Origin: a virus
Lineage: Duplodnaviria; Heunggongvirae; Uroviricota; Caudoviricetes
DNA length: 6,119 nucleotides
Strand: one strand, 5' to 3'
Virus record (IMG/VR): IMGVR_UViG_2690315994_000022
Part shown: piece by piece, positions 1 to 6,119 of the stretch
Position numbering within the stretch: position 1 is the first letter of the stretch
How the letters are laid out: each line of letters starts with the position of its first letter
The notes under the pieces: generated by a model
Database searches by the model: none
Seen by the model: only the letters and a program-made list of their open reading frames with translations
Told to the model about the DNA's origin: nothing
Translations under genes and position numbers: made by a program

Positions 1-432
1 TATATTTTCAGTGCCGATAAAAATGCGTTTTTCCCTGTGGAGCTTAAAATCGCTTATCAGGAATCCGGCGAATGGCCCGGTGATGGAATCGAAATTGACG
101 ACACTGTTGCCGCCGAATTTATGAAGGAAGCACCAGAAGGAAAATACAGAGGTGTCATCGACGGAATGCCTACATGGATTGATATTCCACCGCCAACTCA
201 TGAGGAACAAATTGCCGCAGCCGAACTGGAAAAGCAGCAATTGATTAATCAGGTCAACGAATACATAAACAGTAAGCAATGGCCTGGTAAAGCGGCGATT
301 GGTCGCCTGAAAGGTGAGGAACTGGCGCAATATAATTTGTGGCTGGATTATCTGGACGCACTGGAGCTGGTCGATACTTCCGGTGCGCCAGATATTGAAT
401 GGCCTACGCCTCCGGCAGTTCAGGCCAGATGA
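1..432 (+). CDS. tail fibre assembly protein (Tfa/U-type), 5'-truncated by the window edge; inverted partner copy (tfa')
   Basis: Frame 1 is open from base 1 to TGA at 430..432 (the supplied ORF starts at GTG 37 but the frame is open upstream). C-terminus LWLDYLDALELVDTSGAPDIEWPTPP matches the C-terminus of the minus-strand Tfa (AVLDYIDAVTATDTSTAPDVIWPELP), the conserved tail of phage tail-fibre assembly chaperones. Convergent with and overlapping the other tfa by 29 bp. Confidence 0.8.
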   Translation, partial: YIFSADKNAFFPVELKIAYQESGEWPGDGIEIDDTVAAEFMKEAPEGKYRGVIDGMPTWIDIPPPTHEEQIAAAELEKQQLINQVNEYINSKQWPGKAAIGRLKGEELAQYNLWLDYLDALELVDTSGAPDIEWPTPPAVQAR

Positions 433-997
433 CGTCCGGCGCTGTGCTGGTATCTGTTGCCGTCACCGCGTCAATATAATCCAGCACAGCGTTAAGTCGG
501 GTGTTTTCTGGCTGCGTCAGCTTCCGCCCGGCCTGTAATTTCAGTTGAATCAGACTGATGGAAGCCATTGCAGCATCAATCAGCGACTGGCGCTGTGCTT
601 CTGCCGCTTCTACTGCGGCGCTATGCGGTGCCTCGGTATCCGTCACCCATTTCTCACCATCCCATTTATCGTATGGCGTTAACGGTGAAAGCGTGACATA
701 ACCGTCTTTGATGGCACCGATATAATCCACTGTAACAGCTGCGCCATTTTCAGTTGAGTAAACGGTCTCATTGCGATGGTCTTCTTCATGGCTCCATCCC
801 TTACCCGTAAATACAGCCACTTTTCCCGGAATGTTTTCGCTCGGGTCAATACCAGTGGAACAGGCGGGCATACTTACGCCAGTATTAATATATTCATCAG
901 ACCAGCCGGTATATTCATACGTTACTGCATTATAATAAAAACAACGCATATCGCCCGGCACTGTAGCCAGCCCATTTTCATCAAAAACAGGTTTCAT
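404..997 (-). CDS. tail fibre assembly protein (Tfa)
   Basis: 197-aa ORF with ATG at 997..995 sharing one base with the tail-fibre stop (TAATG overlap). Same conserved C-terminal motif as tfa'. Sits directly downstream of the tail-fibre gene, as in Mu S-U, P2 H-G and e14 stf-tfa. Confidence 0.85.
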   Translation of the reverse strand: MKPVFDENGLATVPGDMRCFYYNAVTYEYTGWSDEYINTGVSMPACSTGIDPSENIPGKVAVFTGKGWSHEEDHRNETVYSTENGAAVTVDYIGAIKDGYVTLSPLTPYDKWDGEKWVTDTEAPHSAAVEAAEAQRQSLIDAAMASISLIQLKLQAGRKLTQPENTRLNAVLDYIDAVTATDTSTAPDVIWPELPEA

Positions 998-2100
998 TAT
1001 TTAGCCCTCACCAGAAAGTTAAATGCAATATTTCGTGGACGGGTTTCTGTACCTACATTTCCACTAATTTCACCATAACGTTTAACACTACGAGAGCTAA
1101 GAGCTCGTAGTGAGGAAGGCACCTTAAGACCGGGTTCGTCCGTTTTAACTATTCCCCCGTCACCATATGTAGCCAGTATTCCTGGGTTTACTCCTTCCCG
1201 TGCACTTCCTGCGGCAAGCCCGTCCCCCGTCCACAATTCCATATTGTGTGCATGATCCATAATTGTGTGTGATTGCCCTGAAAGTAGGGTACGTCCGACA
1301 TCAATCCCGCGCCCATCATCCCAGATACGAATGAAATCACCGCGTGCGTCAGGTAATGCCAGCGCCGGAAACACTTTCGCCAGCACAGGGTAATCAGTGG
1401 CAGAGAATTTCGCGCCGTTGAACTTCAAAAACACCATACCGGACCAGCTATCGATTACGGTATCTGGCATTGCAGCGGACGGCCAGAAGAACGGAACGCC
1501 AATAGCTGGAGCTCCTTCTCCCAAACCAAGGTTTTCGAGAGCCGTTTTCACCGTGCCATCCGATTTGATATCACCAAACGGATTCTTGCGGCTCAGGTAT
1601 TCAACAGCAAACCCCGATCCCAGCAATTCAACAAANNNNNNNNNNNNNNNNNNNNNNNNNNNNNNNNNNNNNNNNNNNNNNNNNNNNNNNNNNNNNNNNN
1701 NNNNNNNNNNNNNNNNNNNNNNNNNNNNNNNNNNNNNNNNNNNNNNNNNNNNNNNNAAACCAAGGTTTTCGAGAGCCGTTTTCACCGTGCCATCCGATTT
1801 GATATCACCAAACGGATTCTTGCGGCTCAGGTATTCAACAGCAAACCCCGATCCCAGCAATTCAACAAAACCGGGCAGATCACCATTATCAAGCACATCC
1901 CGTTGCGTTTTATCACTTACAAACTGGGCCAGAGCTGCAGCAATAAAGCTGGCCTGCCGAATAACCTTATTGACTTGCGCACTGGAGGCTTTCCCTGCTG
2001 TAAATCCGGATAAAAGCGCGGGCAACGCTTCCCATTCCTCCTGCGATATAACATTGGCATTTCGATCCGTTGCAAACGCTTTAAAGTCATTTTTCGTCAT
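997..2100 (-). CDS. tail fibre protein: constant N-terminal part plus exchangeable tail-collar-type C-terminal part; length inflated by a scaffold gap and a 234-bp duplication
   Basis: Start preferred at ATG 2100..2098 (MTKNDF...), forming an ATGA overlap with the upstream stop and preceded by GGGGAG about 10 nt away; the supplied ORF start at 2118 has its AGGAG too close. The C-terminal part (...[41 protein letters not shown]...) resembles the phage tail-collar motif. A crossover site lies in frame at 1516..1541. The ORF contains 121 N and a duplicated 78-codon block; the real product is probably about 289 aa. Confidence 0.75.
1516..1541. other. 26-bp gix/hix/cix/pix-type recombination crossover site (site 1) inside the tail-fibre ORF
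   Basis: TTCTCCCAAACC-AA-GGTTTTCGAGAG: two imperfect inverted 12-bp half-sites around a 2-bp core, with the AAACC-NN-GGTTT centre typical of Hin/Gin/Cin/Pin sites. Lies at the junction between the N-terminal and collar-type parts of the tail fibre, and a Pin invertase is encoded in the window. Confidence 0.65.
1523..1635. repeat. 113-bp exact direct repeat, copy A (left of the N gap)
   Basis: Compared base by base with 1757..1869: identical. Starts at the AAACC of crossover site 1 and ends at the first N. Confidence 0.95.
1636..1756. other. run of 121 N: scaffold/assembly gap, not biological sequence
   Basis: Uninterrupted n characters; flanked by identical 113-bp sequence on both sides. 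Confidence 0.98.
1757..1869. repeat. 113-bp exact direct repeat, copy B (right of the N gap)
   Basis: Identical to 1523..1635. The post-gap sequence begins inside the crossover site, at its AAACC. Confidence 0.95.
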
Positions 2101-2780
2101 CAGAGTAATACTCCCCATGCTCCTACATCAAAACCACTGATGAATTCGTTATCCATATCAAAACCAAAAAATTTTGAGCCTTCCGATGGGGTTTCCACCG
2201 AAGGTGTTTCAATGCCACCCGCCCATACCCCGGCGGCTTTTACTGTGAGATACCCCTGTTTAATTGCCGCAATTAACTCACGCGATACATCTGAAATATC
2301 AGTATCAGGAAAGACCCAGACCGATATCGTCATGTCCTGGTTATCGACTATCTGCATTCGCAGCCCGGATCCTGCTGTTGCCGCGTCAAGAATTGCCAGA
2401 AGCGAATCATTCCGTCCGTCCCAGTTATTAATCGCAATCTTCGCTTTAAGAATGACACGATAAGTTTCATCGCTGAGATACATGTATCCTGAATCAGGAT
2501 CGTATGGTCCCTGCCATACCCCCTGATCATATCCAAGCCCGTCGGTATCCCAGCTGAAATAGACACCTGAGATAGGCTGGCTGACAACACGGCTACGTCC
2601 GATCCACAATCCAAGAATGTCAAGTTGCACACCAACCGCAGAGTCAATATCAAATGCAGTAATCAGCCCTCTGGTGGCAGCCGCAACATCAATAAGTGGC
2701 CGGGTCATCAGATCAACATGCGCAAGAAATTTAGGTTTGGTGGCGTGGTAGTTCGTGATTAGTTCGGTGTATTTGCTCAT
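2100..2780 (-). CDS. phage tail/baseplate protein, Mu gp48 / YmfQ-like
   Basis: 226-aa ORF between the baseplate-J-like gene and the tail-fibre gene, the position occupied by Mu gp48, e14 YmfQ and P2 gpI. ATGA overlaps at both ends (2780..2777 and 2102..2098). Family assignment is by position and general resemblance, not a search. Confidence 0.6.
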   Translation of the reverse strand: MSKYTELITNYHATKPKFLAHVDLMTRPLIDVAAATRGLITAFDIDSAVGVQLDILGLWIGRSRVVSQPISGVYFSWDTDGLGYDQGVWQGPYDPDSGYMYLSDETYRVILKAKIAINNWDGRNDSLLAILDAATAGSGLRMQIVDNQDMTISVWVFPDTDISDVSRELIAAIKQGYLTVKAAGVWAGGIETPSVETPSEGSKFFGFDMDNEFISGFDVGAWGVLL

Positions 2781-3976
2781 GACTCCACCGTTATAACGAT
2801 ATTTTCCGGGGTACAGGACACAGATTCGTTGTATCTGATATCAATGTTTGATGACGACAAAGCCCCCGGGGATTTCCCAATCGTCAGTTCCTGAATATCG
2901 TAATAGCGTGCATTCCCGCCACTCACCACGCCAAGATTCGCCGGTGAGTAAATGCGACTTAAAAGGACCGAATCACCAATCATCAGACTATTGATATAGT
3001 CGGAAATAGCCTGCTGGATCTGCTGCCCTATCTGTGAGGTATAACCCGTAAAAACTTGTAATTTGATCCGGGCATAAACAGGCACATCACTGGAACGCGA
3101 GAATTTGATTACATGGGGATTGCCGTATTTATCCGGAACCGTAACGGATGTTGTACCGTGAGTGGCTGTCCCCTGGCCTTTATTTCCTCTGATAGCCTGA
3201 GCAATATCCGTCACATCACCGCCATCCACAATTACAGCAACAGAGTGTGGCGGTAACCCGTTACCGTCCTCCGAACCAGTATCGTTTTCATAGAGTTTGT
3301 GGCGGGTTACACCGGTAACATTAGAAACAGCACCATCCAGTGCTTCAAATGGGGTTATTGATGGCAACGCAACACTTTGCGACTGGCGGATACGTAACTC
3401 CGCATCAGTTTCTGCTGGAGTGCCTACAGTAGCTGCAGCAGGATTGGTTACCGAAACCCAGCCACGGGTTGGCGTATTAATTTCAGTGATAGTTCCAGCC
3501 AGCGCCGCCACTGCACCACTGACGGAACATGTTGCGGTCACCATCACTGTACCATCCACGCCGACCACCACTGAAGCAGGCAAACGCCATATCACATTAT
3601 TACTGTCTTTCACGCTGCCATTAATGATGGTTGTTCCGGCAGTTCCTGTAAGAAGCAAATCAACCGTAGAATTCGTCGCGCCTTTACGTGAAATACCATT
3701 TATTTTCACGTTACTGGTCAGTGCAGCCCCATAGCCGGTTGCCGGTGAAAAACAGTTGTAGACAGTTATCGCCATATTATTGGCATCATGAATCGCCAGC
3801 GCCATCAGAGCCACCATCTGGCCGTCTTTGCTGTCCGGTTCGAGGTAGGCATCACTGCCATAAATCTGCTGAAAATAGCTAATCAGGGTGCTGAGTATCG
3901 TCTGATAATCAGGCGCACTGATCCCCTCCGCGGTTACCTTTGCAGATAAACCGAGAGAATCAAGGTTCAGAGCCAT
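2777..3976 (-). CDS. baseplate J-like protein (Mu gp47 / P2 gpJ family)
   Basis: 399-aa ORF; size, composition and position immediately upstream of the gp48-like and tail-fibre genes fit the baseplate J family. GGAGG lies just upstream of ATG 3976. The stop overlaps the next gene's start (ATGA). Confidence 0.8.
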   Translation of the reverse strand: MALNLDSLGLSAKVTAEGISAPDYQTILSTLISYFQQIYGSDAYLEPDSKDGQMVALMALAIHDANNMAITVYNCFSPATGYGAALTSNVKINGISRKGATNSTVDLLLTGTAGTTIINGSVKDSNNVIWRLPASVVVGVDGTVMVTATCSVSGAVAALAGTITEINTPTRGWVSVTNPAAATVGTPAETDAELRIRQSQSVALPSITPFEALDGAVSNVTGVTRHKLYENDTGSEDGNGLPPHSVAVIVDGGDVTDIAQAIRGNKGQGTATHGTTSVTVPDKYGNPHVIKFSRSSDVPVYARIKLQVFTGYTSQIGQQIQQAISDYINSLMIGDSVLLSRIYSPANLGVVSGGNARYYDIQELTIGKSPGALSSSNIDIRYNESVSCTPENIVITVES

Positions 3977-4141
3977 TACGCCTCCGATGTAACAGTCGTT
4001 ATTCCATAAAGAGTGTCGATTTCAGCGGAAAACATGACACGTCGGGTCGTGGTATCCACCGTCGTATTGAAAGAGAGGATTGATTTAACGCCCNAAACCA
4101 ACGTTTATGAAAATGCAGAAATAACGAGCAAATGGCATCAT
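3976..4141 (-). pseudogene. short ORF or 3' gene remnant upstream of J that reads through crossover site 2; frame depends on the ambiguous base at 4094
   Basis: With the n at 4094 omitted, the minus strand reads MMPFARYFCIFINVGLGVKSILSFNTTVDTTTRRVMFSAEIDTLYGITTVTSEA and stops at TAA 3978..3976, sharing one base with the J start (TAATG). With n kept as a real base the frame stops at 4087..4085. No convincing RBS at its 5' end. Confidence 0.3.
4088..4113. other. second gix/pix-type crossover site (site 2), 55 bp upstream of pin; contains an ambiguous base
   Basis: ACGCCCnAAACC-AA-CGTTTATGAAAA has the same AAACC-AA-(C/G)GTTT centre as site 1. If the n is dropped, the left arm AACGCCCAAACC matches site 1's TTCTCCCAAACC at 9 of 12 positions. 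Its position just upstream of the invertase gene is the canonical one for the invertase-proximal site in Gin/Cin/Pin systems. Confidence 0.55.
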
Positions 4142-4154
4142 TCCTGCTTTTGTC

Positions 4155-4160
4155 AGGGAG
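4155..4160 (+). promoter_or_regulatory. Shine-Dalgarno sequence for pin
   Basis: AGGGAG, 7 nt upstream of ATG 4168. Confidence 0.5.
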
Positions 4161-4167
4161 ATCTACC

Positions 4168-4722
4168 ATGCTTATTGGCTATGTACGTGTGTCAACAAAT
4201 GACCAGAACACAGATCTACAACGTAATGCGCTGAACTGTGCAGGATGCGAGCTGATTTTTGAAGACAAGATAAGCGGTACAAAGTCCGAAAGGCCGGGAC
4301 TGAAAAAACTGCTCAGGACATTATCGGCAGGTGATACGCTGGTGGTCTGGAAACTGGACCGACTGGGGCGCAGTATGCGGCATCTTGTCGTGCTGGTGGA
4401 GGAGTTGCGCGAACGAGGCATCAACTTTCGTAGTCTGACGGATTCAATTGATACCAGTACCCCAATGGGGCGCTTTTTCTTTCATGTGATGGGTGCCCTG
4501 GCTGAAATGGAACGTGAACTGATTGTTGAACGAACAAAAGCAGGACTGGAAGCTGCTCGCGCACAGGGACGAATTGGGGGACGTCGTCCCAAACTTACAC
4601 CAGAACAATGGGCGCAGGCCGGGCGATTAATTGCATCAGGCGTTCCTCGCCAGAAGGTGGCGATCATCTATGATGTTGGCGTATCGACTTTGTATAAGAA
4701 GTTTCCGGTCGGAGATAAATGA
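4168..4722 (+). CDS. pin: serine DNA invertase of the Pin/Gin/Hin/Cin (Din) family
   Basis: 184-aa product starting MLIGYVRVSTNDQNTDLQRNAL, with the catalytic-serine motif YVRVSTNDQ, the conserved WKLDRLGRS and GALAEMERELI blocks, and a C-terminal helix-turn-helix (VAIIYDVGVSTLYKK). Close to Gin/PinE as remembered. Start chosen at ATG 4168 rather than the supplied ORF's 4132 because of the RBS and family N-terminus. Confidence 0.95.
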   Translation: MLIGYVRVSTNDQNTDLQRNALNCAGCELIFEDKISGTKSERPGLKKLLRTLSAGDTLVVWKLDRLGRSMRHLVVLVEELRERGINFRSLTDSIDTSTPMGRFFFHVMGALAEMERELIVERTKAGLEAARAQGRIGGRRPKLTPEQWAQAGRLIASGVPRQKVAIIYDVGVSTLYKKFPVGDK

Positions 4723-5027
4723 AACCGTAGCACGTCGTATGCAAGAACGTGCCACGGCTGGCTGATGGACGTTCGATAGCGCGAGTTTGAATGAAAATCA
4801 GCCGGAGATGATTTTACATAATTGCTACGGAATTATTCAATACAGGAATTGCTTGTGTATGCATGGATTGACCTGAAATATTCCCGAAAATTTCTCTAAA
4901 AAACTCGAAAAAAATGGTAACTAATTGAATGTATTAATATGTAATAGTACGTGTTAGAGATTAAAAGATGAGCATAAATTTATTTAACACATTAATTCTA
5001 AAAGATTTTGTTGTTTGTTGACGAAAA

Positions 5028-5052
5028 CAGGAATCGTGTTCGGTCTCTTTTT
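5028..5052 (+). ncRNA. sdsR: probable 3'-terminal fragment of sRNA SdsR (RyeB), i.e. candidate prophage attachment-site core
   Basis: CAGGAATCGTGTTCGGTCTCTTTTT matches, with one mismatch, what I recall as the SdsR terminator 3' half (..CAGGAAUCGUAUUCGGUCUCUUUUU). The upstream arm of the terminator stem is not complementary here, so only the 3' part is present. From memory, not searched. Confidence 0.35.
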
Positions 5053-5171
5053 ATCTGTTAAAAGCCAGAAGCATTTCCTTCGCTGACTTTATAGTCAACC
5101 ATAACACACACTCTACTGTCTGAGTCCAGCGTTTTTTAACATTCTTGTTAAGATTATGTGATCTTTAGCGC

Positions 5172-5177
5172 GGGAGG
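5172..5177 (+). promoter_or_regulatory. Shine-Dalgarno sequence for pphA
   Basis: GGGAGG, 9 nt upstream of ATG 5187. Confidence 0.5.
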
Positions 5178-5186
5178 AAAATATTG

Positions 5187-5843
5187 ATGAAACAGCCTGC
5201 GCCCGTTTATCAGAGAATTGCGGGTCATCAATGGCGACATATCTGGCTTTCTGGCGATATACACGGTTGTCTTGAGCAGTTGCGCCGCAAATTATGGCAT
5301 TGTCGTTTTGATCCGTGGCGAGATTTACTTATCTCAGTGGGAGACGTTATCGATCGTGGGCCGCAAAGTTTACGTTGTCTGCAGTTACTGGAACAACATT
5401 GGGTTCGTGCGGTAAGAGGCAATCATGAACAGATGGCGATGGATGCGCTGGCATCCCAGCAGATGTCTTTGTGGTTGATGAATGGCGGCGACTGGTTTAT
5501 TGCGCTGGCAGATAATCAACAGAAACAAGCGAAAACGGCGCTGGAAAAATGTCAGCATTTGCCCTTTATTCTTGAAGTACACAGCCGCACCGGCAAACAT
5601 GTTATTGCTCATGCCGATTATCCAGATGATGTTTATGAATGGCAAAAGGACGTTGATTTGCATCAGGTCTTGTGGAGCCGCTCGCGATTAAGTGAACGCC
5701 AAAAAGGGCAGGGAATTACAGGTGCTGATCATTTCTGGTTTGGTCATACACCGTTGCGCCATCGCGTGGATATTGGCAACCTGCATTATATTGATACCGG
5801 CGCTGTCTTTGGGGGCGAACTGACTTTCGTGCAATTGCAATAA
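5187..5843 (+). CDS. pphA: serine/threonine protein phosphatase 1 (PPP-family metallophosphatase)
   Basis: 218-aa product MKQPAPVYQRIAGHQWRHIWLSGDIHGC... with the metallophosphatase motifs GDIHG, GDVIDRG and GNHE; recognised as E. coli PphA/PrpA. Start at ATG 5187 (the supplied ORF begins at TTG 5184). Confidence 0.9.
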   Translation: MKQPAPVYQRIAGHQWRHIWLSGDIHGCLEQLRRKLWHCRFDPWRDLLISVGDVIDRGPQSLRCLQLLEQHWVRAVRGNHEQMAMDALASQQMSLWLMNGGDWFIALADNQQKQAKTALEKCQHLPFILEVHSRTGKHVIAHADYPDDVYEWQKDVDLHQVLWSRSRLSERQKGQGITGADHFWFGHTPLRHRVDIGNLHYIDTGAVFGGELTFVQLQ

Positions 5844-6035
5844 TTAAAAATCACCATACTCCTGTGCTGGTCGCCAGAAACCATCTATAAAATCCTCAAT
5901 CGGAAAACAACCGCCATGACGGATCCGTTGATCGCTCATAGAATAAAGACACTGCTGTTCCGTGTTGTAGACATCCACAACAATATCTTCACAACCGCCA
6001 TCCAGGTAGCAAACAAAAAGTACCAGCGCGAACAT
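5844..6035 (-). CDS. yebW: small conserved protein, YebW-like (63 aa); the ORF stays open to the window edge so the start is uncertain
   Basis: Minus-strand ORF ending at TAA 5846..5844, directly abutting the pphA stop. An internal ATG at 6035..6033 gives a 63-aa product (MFALVLFVCYLDGGCEDIVVDV...EYGDF), the size I recall for YebW beside pphA in E. coli K-12. Symbol is from memory. Confidence 0.45.
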   Translation of the reverse strand: MFALVLFVCYLDGGCEDIVVDVYNTEQQCLYSMSDQRIRHGGCFPIEDFIDGFWRPAQEYGDF

Positions 6036-6119
6036 TTCATCCCCGAAGTGTGGTGCCGTACCGTTAAGTTTAGGAGAGATTTTACAACGGGGGAATAACC
6101 AGGACAAATAACCCGCCAT

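Follow-up and report, generated by a model that had tools for sequence, protein, structure and literature searches.

The unusual gene order around the DNA invertase gene pin in the 6,119-nt stretch of DNA analysed here (the window) is, with a probability of about 90%, an assembly misjoin at an ordinary invertible tail-fibre cassette of the e14/Mu/P1 type, and the locus belongs to a myovirus-like E. coli prophage integrated beside pphA. This reading rests on the contig structure of the scaffold, the absence of the anomalous junction elsewhere, the natural adjacency of the outer two of three assembled pieces (A and C), and the canonical order of the locus in relatives. The original prediction had described a non-canonical topology, with both crossover sites carrying the AA core on one strand and bracketing the constant fibre part, the DUF2612/wedge gene (2100-2780) and the Baseplate_J gene (2777-3976). 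All of this is present in the deposited record; as a description of the genome it fails, since closed relatives are canonical.

The window comprises the terminal 6.1 kb (positions 2-6120) of the 331-kb scaffold CYBJ01000001.1, part of draft assembly GCA_001284825.1. Three pieces make it up, namely A (1-1635), B (1757-4093) and C (from 4095), the last running on into 325 kb of chromosome. Its only N runs are the 121 N between A and B and the single N (4094) between B and C, and each lies exactly at an anomalous join. A repeat search revealed an exact 113-nt duplication flanking the longer run (1523-1635 = 1757-1869, 100% identity). This duplication is an unmerged contig overlap, and the 121-N gap should not exist, because its flanking sequences overlap. 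Collapsing the gap and the duplicate yields an intact fibre gene of 295 aa, collinear with the closed genome DEC5E; the scaffold therefore demonstrably holds graph-neighbour contigs that were left unmerged. Contigs B and C start at one and the same position of the crossover site (AAACC AA ...). Examination of the record end placed the end of the scaffold 1 base left of the window, inside tfa'.

Table 1 Features of the window.
Feature	Position	Strand	Evidence or remark
tfa', tail-fibre assembly gene belonging to the other half of the cassette, 5'-truncated	1..432	+	Caudo_TAP E=6e-34
tfa, 197 aa, partner of the variable part now expressed	404..997	-	Caudo_TAP E=5e-27
Sv, variable C-terminal part of the fibre, ends in left half-site TTCTCCC	997..1522	-	invertible-segment member
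Complete 26-bp Pin crossover site, TTCTCCCAAACC-AA-GGTTTTCGAGAG	1516..1541	+	Sv/Sc boundary; also in closed genomes
End of contig A	1523..1635		113 nt = contig B start (1757-1869)
121-N scaffold gap	1636..1756		flanks overlap
Sc, constant N-terminal part of the fibre	1757..2118	-	contig B begins at AAACC within the site
DUF2612 / wedge-1 baseplate gene (Mu gp48-position)	2100..2780	-	PF11041 E=4e-47
Baseplate J / gp47-family gene	2777..3976	-	PF04865 E=1e-15
W, sheath-initiator (gp25-like, 117 aa), last 38 codons	3976..4093	-	contig B end; Pfam Sheath_initiator
B/C join, single N	4094..4094		in intact prophages, first variable W-gene base (C, C or T)
Pin-proximal partial site, right 19 nt, AAACC-AA-CGTTTATGAAAA	4095..4113	+	contig C start
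pin, Gin/Hin-family serine DNA invertase, 184 aa	4168..4722	+	Resolvase PF00239 E=1.5e-51; HTH_7 PF02796 E=3.5e-14
Terminal prophage DNA	4723..5021		K-12 chromosome homology begins at 5022, inside the sdsR/ryeA locus
pphA, chromosomal protein phosphatase flanking the prophage	5187..5843	+	Metallophos; annotation
yebW (DUF1482), chromosomal	5844..6119	-	PF07358 E=3e-35

The gene content (Table 1) is that of a fibre switch embedded in a tail module. Pin is a small serine recombinase with a resolvase catalytic domain and a C-terminal HTH, closely related to Gin, Hin, Cin and Pin; it matches Gin structures 3uj3 (E=4e-94, residues 1-181) and 4m6f (E about 1e-93), and its gene carries the PGAP annotation pinE. 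Sc, Sv, tfa and tfa' are all found in the window, in keeping with a segment that carries two alternative fibre C-termini, with their tfa genes facing opposite ways, and leaves the constant N-terminal part outside; tfa' lacks its 5' end, as the scaffold stops 1 nt left of the window. The tfa region is collinear with DEC5E and with E. coli O55:H7 DEC5B, and Sv is 99.4% identical to the invertible segment of DEC5B, in which it abuts pin. DEC5E, DEC5B and CAU16175 each have a 354-nt gene upstream of J, and the W remnant is identical to its 3' end. In all three, W extends beyond the break point of the window. A lookup of the exact J protein, aimed at an independent assembly of this isolate, found the protein on the source scaffold only. 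An Rfam scan of the window returned no family at threshold, the 31-nt sdsR 3' remnant being too short to score, and a promoter and terminator scan of 3900-5250 gave counts no better than chance.

The pattern AAACCAASGTTTWYGARA matched the window three times, against 0.00 matches expected by chance, with the third match (1757-1774) belonging to the 113-nt assembly duplicate. The complete site falls within the minus-strand tail-fibre gene and the partial one lies 55 nt upstream of pin; the AA core is on the plus strand at both, which puts them in direct orientation. Two inverted 26-bp sites with the same core were thus not found in the deposited window, which has one full and one partial site. 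In the partial site, the left 7 nt, TTCTCC(C/T/A), are replaced by ACGCCC and the ambiguous base, that is, by the 3' end of the truncated sheath-initiator (W-like) gene. Serine invertases such as Gin, Hin and Cin cleave at the core dinucleotide. The break seen here falls where the C run meets AAACC, 6 nt before the AA core. The two left half-sites of DEC5B differ in the base that precedes AAACC, which is C next to Sv and T next to Sv'; in other genomes the left half-site ends in A, or reads TTCCCCC. Since the half-sites differ at this base, an assembly graph containing both states would branch exactly there. With respect to the W side of the join, position 4094 is the first W base to vary across three closed prophages, following a stretch of 144 invariant ones, and the W alleles of two O55:H7 prophages differ first at 4096, not 4094. 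That contigs break at the base distinguishing the half-sites hints at a switch flipping in the sequenced culture, or at two related prophages.

Closed genomes display the locus in the order W - J - wedge - Sc - site - [Sv tfa / tfa' Sv'] - site (inverted) - pin - pphA. This canonical order was seen in DEC5A, DEC5B, DEC5E and the prophage record ON470579, as well as in 10/10 long contigs encoding an identical 184-aa Pin. Two inverted sites 1.8-1.9 kb apart were present in DEC5E, in DEC5B and in seven of the ten identical-Pin contigs; in the other three, the strict pattern matched the pin-side site only. The chromosomal flank of DEC5E is 99.6% identical to that of the window, and its block C lies 464 nt left of the block A match, on the opposite strand. 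The full set of Sc, Sv, tfa, tfa' and Sv' is present in DEC5E, DEC5B (cassette region NZ_CP038389.1 positions 1390252-1392600) and DEC5A, and Sv' is missing from the window only because the scaffold ends. From the inverted tfa' at the left edge, the original prediction had placed the remainder of the cassette and a third site left of the window. For the genome this expectation holds, with Sv', then a site, then pin following in closed relatives; the site, however, is the pin-proximal one and not a third.

DEC5E has the cassette in one state and DEC5B in the other. Moreover, loci L016 and L017 carry the same cassette in opposite orientations with the left half-sites TTCCCCC and TTCTCCC swapped, which implies that the switch inverts naturally, by crossover at the core. 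Inversion may likewise occur within the source isolate itself. A second prophage was sought at yfhH in DEC5A, the closest closed relative, and the locus was empty. CAU16175 bears a rearranged cassette remnant, with pin truncated and IS421 and IS3 insertions.

We then asked where the adjacencies of the window recur. The deposited junction reads W' 3' end - one base - AAACCAACG (window 4050-4140), W' being the truncated W. A 211-nt probe across it, at ≥80% cover, was found at 0 places in 5,426 complete E. coli genomes, none of which covered the whole window either. The exact junction pattern (fixed N; 0-3 nt gap) had no match in GTDB species representative genomes or in JGI metagenome contigs, and no phage record searched held the junction. 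The original prediction had proposed searching other genomes for a pin/J adjacency, and the junction that creates it occurred nowhere among the E. coli complete genomes, the GTDB representatives and the JGI contigs. In contrast, a synthetic 600-nt join of A (1223-1522) and C (4095-4394) matched E. coli O55:H7 DEC5B at 600/600 positions, and at least 80% of this query was covered in 228 complete genomes. The join thus bears the marks of a misjoin: gap characters at the join itself and a neighbouring join with an unmerged contig overlap, together with a junction absent from independent assemblies and an alternative adjacency of the pieces that is present. Of the explanations offered by the original prediction, a scaffolding error accordingly prevails, with both joins N-marked, the W'/pin junction unique and the pin contig the natural flipped-state neighbour of the Sv end of A.

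How an ordinary switch could have given rise to this layout can be outlined as follows. Two inverted 26-bp sites undergo strand exchange by Pin at their AA core, so that ~1.9 kb flips and Sc becomes fused to either Sv or Sv', with the matching tfa downstream. The left half-sites travel with the segment and the right half-sites remain with Sc and pin. The Sv end has two legitimate right-hand neighbours, Sc (contig B) or pin (contig C), depending on the state. Both neighbours begin ...AAACC AA..., and the draft assembly broke at these ambiguous points, as would happen with both orientations present in the sequenced DNA or with two related prophages; we infer one of these two, mixed orientation or a second prophage copy, as the reason for the breaks. 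Contig B may likewise end at 4093 through a second, related prophage whose base at 4094 differs, like that of CAU16175; the two O55:H7 alleles, with their first difference at 4096, speak against this. The scaffolder would have placed both neighbours in series, A - N(121) - B - N - C, producing direct 'sites', setting pin beside a truncated W and J, and leaving out Sv'. How it reached this decision we infer from the resulting layout. Scaffolders normally rely on read-pair links between adjacent contigs. As a counterpoint, B spans 2.3 kb, and if A-to-C links were all that put C after B, either the library must have had long inserts or the algorithm must have been permissive.

The best-surviving alternative takes the junction as real and private to the isolate: illegitimate recombination without Pin, at CCC microhomology, would have inverted the ~4-kb block that extends from the pin-proximal site to a point in W. 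Such an event would freeze the switch, put the sites in direct orientation and cut W in two, thereby predicting exactly the order and orientation of every gene in the window. The 3 nt of CCC shared at the join are in keeping with it, as is the existence of genuine rearranged cassette remnants such as that of CAU16175, and the missing junction elsewhere would still be compatible with an event private to this strain. We nevertheless regard this scenario as very improbable. An N marks the join, and the one beside it on this scaffold has proved to be an overlap left unmerged. Both break points, moreover, match positions of known allelic ambiguity and the start phase of contig B, a coincidence for which a random illegitimate event has no reason. 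The scaffold stops in tfa', leaving the other end of the inversion unsupported. Finally, the reciprocal junction predicted from DEC5E (...GCCGCTTCTCC(C/T) joined to CGCGTTTCGAGG...) was in none of the 5,426 complete E. coli genomes, and the junction itself was absent from all collections searched. On the former ground a real large inversion was rejected. The fixed aberrant rearrangement put forward in the original prediction founders on the same absence of a reciprocal junction from complete genomes, and on a break 6 nt away from the crossover dinucleotide. That the W'/pin junction exists in the isolate or a sizeable subpopulation, through a break in the pin-proximal left half-site joined to W with the 4-kb baseplate block inverted, is highly improbable in our estimate. 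If true, it would represent an illegitimate rearrangement associated with an invertase site that left the sites as direct repeats and the switch locked.

A multi-site system, in which Pin also uses a quasi-site in W and a larger block of baseplate genes flips, is scarcely credible: Cin and Gin are known to recombine at quasi-sites, and intact W does read GCGTTTCGAGGA directly right of the break, agreeing with 8/12 right half-site positions and sharing TTTCGAG, but the core of this quasi-site is CC, not AA, its left half matches at 5/12 positions (by inspection), and a crossover at the core would yield ...GATTTAACGCC-AA-CGTTTATG, whereas the window has 7 extra bases, C-N-AAACC, from the left half of the partner. 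A Pin crossover at the W quasi-site was accordingly rejected, given a break 6 nt off the AA core, the CC core, the poor left half and the 7 leftover bases. Multiple-inversion systems such as p15B Min and shufflon-like ones have crossover sites that number more than two and face both ways, permitting several alternative inversions; closed relatives have at most two, always inverted and 1.8-1.9 kb apart, and the baseplate block was flipped in no genome searched. With intact W lacking a usable site and closed relatives showing just two inverted ones, the multi-site baseplate flip raised by the original prediction can be set aside.

Read as a misjoined ordinary switch, the locus closely resembles e14 Pin and its P-segment in E. 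coli K-12 (pinE, stfP-tfaP / tfaE-stfE). The two are alike in the Gin-family invertase pinE, the 26-bp site type, a constant fibre part joined to one of two variable parts, convergent tfa genes, and upstream DUF2612 and J-type baseplate genes. They differ in that e14 resides in icd, whereas this prophage occupies the pphA/sdsR-ryeA locus and has a full myovirus tail module; the apparent direct-repeat topology of the window is a product of assembly and no biological difference. The architecture and mechanism of Mu Gin with its G segment and of P1 Cin with its C segment are likewise expected here, with the invertase just outside the segment beside one site, inverted sites, and a swap of the fibre C-terminus together with its chaperone. 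In contrast to those systems, the baseplate and tail genes here belong to other families, with DUF2612 in place of Phage_Mu_Gp48 and Sheath_initiator in place of GP46. Gin and Hin depend on a Fis-dependent recombinational enhancer in cis, located within the invertase gene towards its 5' end. By homology, a putative Fis enhancer is expected in this prophage. As for the assembly, the window shares with short-read drafts that break or misjoin at phase-variable segments its contig ends within inverted-repeat sites, the presence of both neighbours, the N-filled gaps and the duplicated contig overlap. Usual drafts leave the graph broken, whereas here both neighbours were serialised into a plausible but false gene order.

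Each end of an invertible segment has two valid neighbours in the assembly graph, and a scaffolder that serialises both can mimic a new recombination topology. N-marked joins that coincide with recombinase sites should thus be treated as suspect in genome scans. For the organism itself, the window almost certainly holds no new biology: it is a textbook tail-fibre host-range switch of the Pin/Gin type in a common E. coli prophage.

Pfam domains and matches to Gin structures bore out the gene identities of the original prediction. The stretch corresponds to positions 2–6120 of CYBJ01000001.1 (assembly GCA_001284825.1, 331,180 bp), the single public contig encoding its exact J protein; the scaffold has just one further base on the left and continues rightwards as ordinary chromosome (pphA, yebW, yebV, rsmF, yebT, proQ, prc). 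Since the only non-ACGT characters in its first 14 kb are a 121-N run (window 1636–1756) and a single N (4094), the region consists of three blocks, A, B and C. An exact 113-nt duplication (1523–1635 = 1757–1869) flanks the N run, an overlap of contigs A and B that was left unmerged; once it is collapsed, the fibre gene is intact (295 aa) and collinear with its counterpart in E. coli O55:H7 DEC5E.

Genes and assembly blocks of the window
Feature	Position	Strand	Evidence
tfa'	1–432	+	Caudo_TAP
tfa	404–997	−	Caudo_TAP
DUF2612 / wedge	2100–2780	−	Pfam
Baseplate_J	2777–3976	−	Pfam
pin, Gin-like invertase	4168–4722	+	Resolvase + HTH_7; Gin structures, E about 1e-93
pphA	5187–5843	+	Pfam
Block A	1–1635
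Block B	1757–4093
Block C	4095 onwards

The two fibre-assembly genes are convergent, their 3' ends overlapping by 29 nt (window 404–432), as in all closed relatives; a 6-nt indel relative to DEC5B lies at position 401. Starting pin at an in-frame ATG located 12 codons before its annotated start (window 4132–4167) would give a 196-aa ORF, which is probably not used because Gin homology begins at the 4168 ATG. The prophage is inserted in the sdsR/ryeA small-RNA locus, which lies upstream of pphA: K-12 chromosomal homology starts within this locus at window 5022 (window 4723–5052, junction at about 5022). Positions 5022–5052 represent the last 31 nt of sdsR, a remnant undetected by Rfam at the gathering threshold. 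Published work describes sdsR/ryeA as an insertion hot spot (Balbontin et al. 2008, PMC2395037, as cited in PMC3333887).

The crossover sites had been described accurately for the record as deposited. A full 26-bp site, TTCTCCCAAACC-AA-GGTTTTCGAGAG, lies at 1516–1541 within the minus-strand tail-fibre gene, and AAACC-AA-CGTTTATGAAAA occurs in the same orientation at 4095–4113, shortly upstream of pin. A degenerate 18-nt site pattern matched three times in the window as opposed to never in 200 shuffles, the third match (1757) being part of the duplicate 1757–1869. The pin-side site comprises only the right 19 nt; the completing 7 nt would be TTCTCC(C/T/A). In their place stands ...ACGCCC plus the N, which is 3'-terminal sequence of the gene upstream of J: positions 3976–4093 encode the final 38 codons of a 117-aa sheath initiator (W, gp25-like), whose gene is whole in every closed relative.

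The chromosomal flank is 99.6–99.7% identical to the O55:H7 strains DEC5A and DEC5E, both of which show the order spike – W – J – wedge – fibre (constant part Sc, variable part Sv) – tfa – tfa' (opposite strand) – alternative variable part Sv' (opposite strand) – site – pin – pphA – yebW. Block C of the window maps in DEC5E to the opposite strand, 464 nt left of the match to block A. The same order recurs in the DEC5B prophage at yfhH, in the prophage record ON470579 and in 10/10 long contigs whose 184-aa Pin is identical (8/10 at pphA), and the two sites of these loci are inverted repeats, 1.8–1.9 kb apart. ON470579.1, the 'complete phage genome' vB_EcoM-606R2, opens on three host genes, tadA, yfhB and yfhH (positions 1–2254), and thus represents a predicted prophage region, not a packaged genome. 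The closed genome of E. coli CAU16175 (NZ_CP047378.1, 5800–11900) carries a genuinely rearranged cassette copy at yfhH, with a split fibre gene, a 5' recombinase fragment beside the variable part followed by IS421, and an IS3 element within the DUF2612 gene.

The adjacency of pin to J, which the original prediction proposed to seek in other genomes, was absent from every collection searched. Each of the 5,426 complete E. coli genomes matched the window in part, and none covered 80% or more of it at a single place; all tail-module matches ended at 4093, and all pin–pphA matches began at 4091/4092. A 211-nt probe centred on the B/C junction found no place with at least 80% coverage. Exact-pattern scans allowing 0–3 bases at the N returned no junction from GTDB species representatives or JGI metagenome contigs, nor was it present in phage records.

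If the invertible segment has two legitimate neighbours, the Sv end of A should abut C, in its scaffold orientation, in the flipped state. A 600-nt synthetic query joining window 1223–1522 to 4095–4394 was identical to DEC5B over 600/600 positions and covered to at least 80% in 228 complete genomes. These sequence comparisons suggest, with a probability of roughly 0.9, that the deposited order A–B–C is a misassembly in which the Sv end was followed in succession by each of its two possible neighbours on the right, Sc from one state and pin from the other; the scaffold stops short of Sv', which would account for its absence.

The contig break points suggest how such an order could arise. Contigs B and C begin at one and the same site position, AAACC. 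The DEC5B invertible segment shares 99.4% identity with contig A, and its left half-sites differ at the base just before AAACC (TTCTCCC on the Sv side, TTCTCCT on the Sv' side), and other genomes have TTCTCCA or TTCCCCC. Reads carrying Sv–Sc and Sv'–Sc, along with both pin junctions, would render a leftward walk from Sc or pin ambiguous at that base; such a mixture may reflect a culture with both orientations, or two related prophages. At the right end of contig B, positions 3950–4093 are invariant across DEC5E, DEC5B and CAU16175, the first variable bases being 4094 (C/C/T, respectively) and 4096 (C/A/C), and the presence of two related prophages in the isolate would cause the graph to branch here. 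What tempers the misassembly reading is that the scaffolder would have had to place C behind a contig as long as 2.3 kb.

Alternatively, Pin itself might have created the junction. Gin/Hin-family invertases cleave at the central dinucleotide. Two assemblies carrying one cassette in opposite orientations (L016 and L017; sites at 4106–4131 and 5921–5946 in each) have TTCCCCC and TTCTCCC exchanged between fibre-side and pin-side sites, a natural demonstration that the AA core is where crossover occurs and that the left half-sites move along with the segment. In intact prophages, W reads ...ACGCC-CC-GCGTTTCGAGGA, and the last element (9733–9744 of the intact prophage locus L001), directly right of where contig B ends, matches the right half-site at 8/12 positions and shares the heptamer TTTCGAG. 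This resemblance is probably due to chance, given a CC core and a left half with 5/12 matches. We rejected a Pin product on these two grounds and because the window break lies 6 nt left of the AA core; a core exchange with W would not leave the C-N-AAACC present. The reciprocal junction that a real pin-site/W inversion requires was built and searched for, and found in none of the complete genomes.

The locus belongs with the e14, Mu G and P1 C-type cassettes. Inverted sites are the sole defining feature to fail, solely in the apparently misassembled record, and all closed relatives have them. The originally proposed 'non-canonical topology' is therefore not a real feature. Across window 4095–4766, pin is identical to that of the DEC5B yfhH locus up to 4577 and carries 13 differences from 4578 onwards; in DEC5E and DEC5A, the pins at pphA show other patterns. 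The gene is mosaic between prophages, which suggests recombination among prophage invertase genes. Pin falls within the Gin/Hin/Cin/Pin family and would act on two inverted 26-bp sites to flip the ~1.9 kb between them, fusing the constant fibre N-terminus to Sv or Sv' with the matching tfa chaperone gene downstream: a standard host-range switch.
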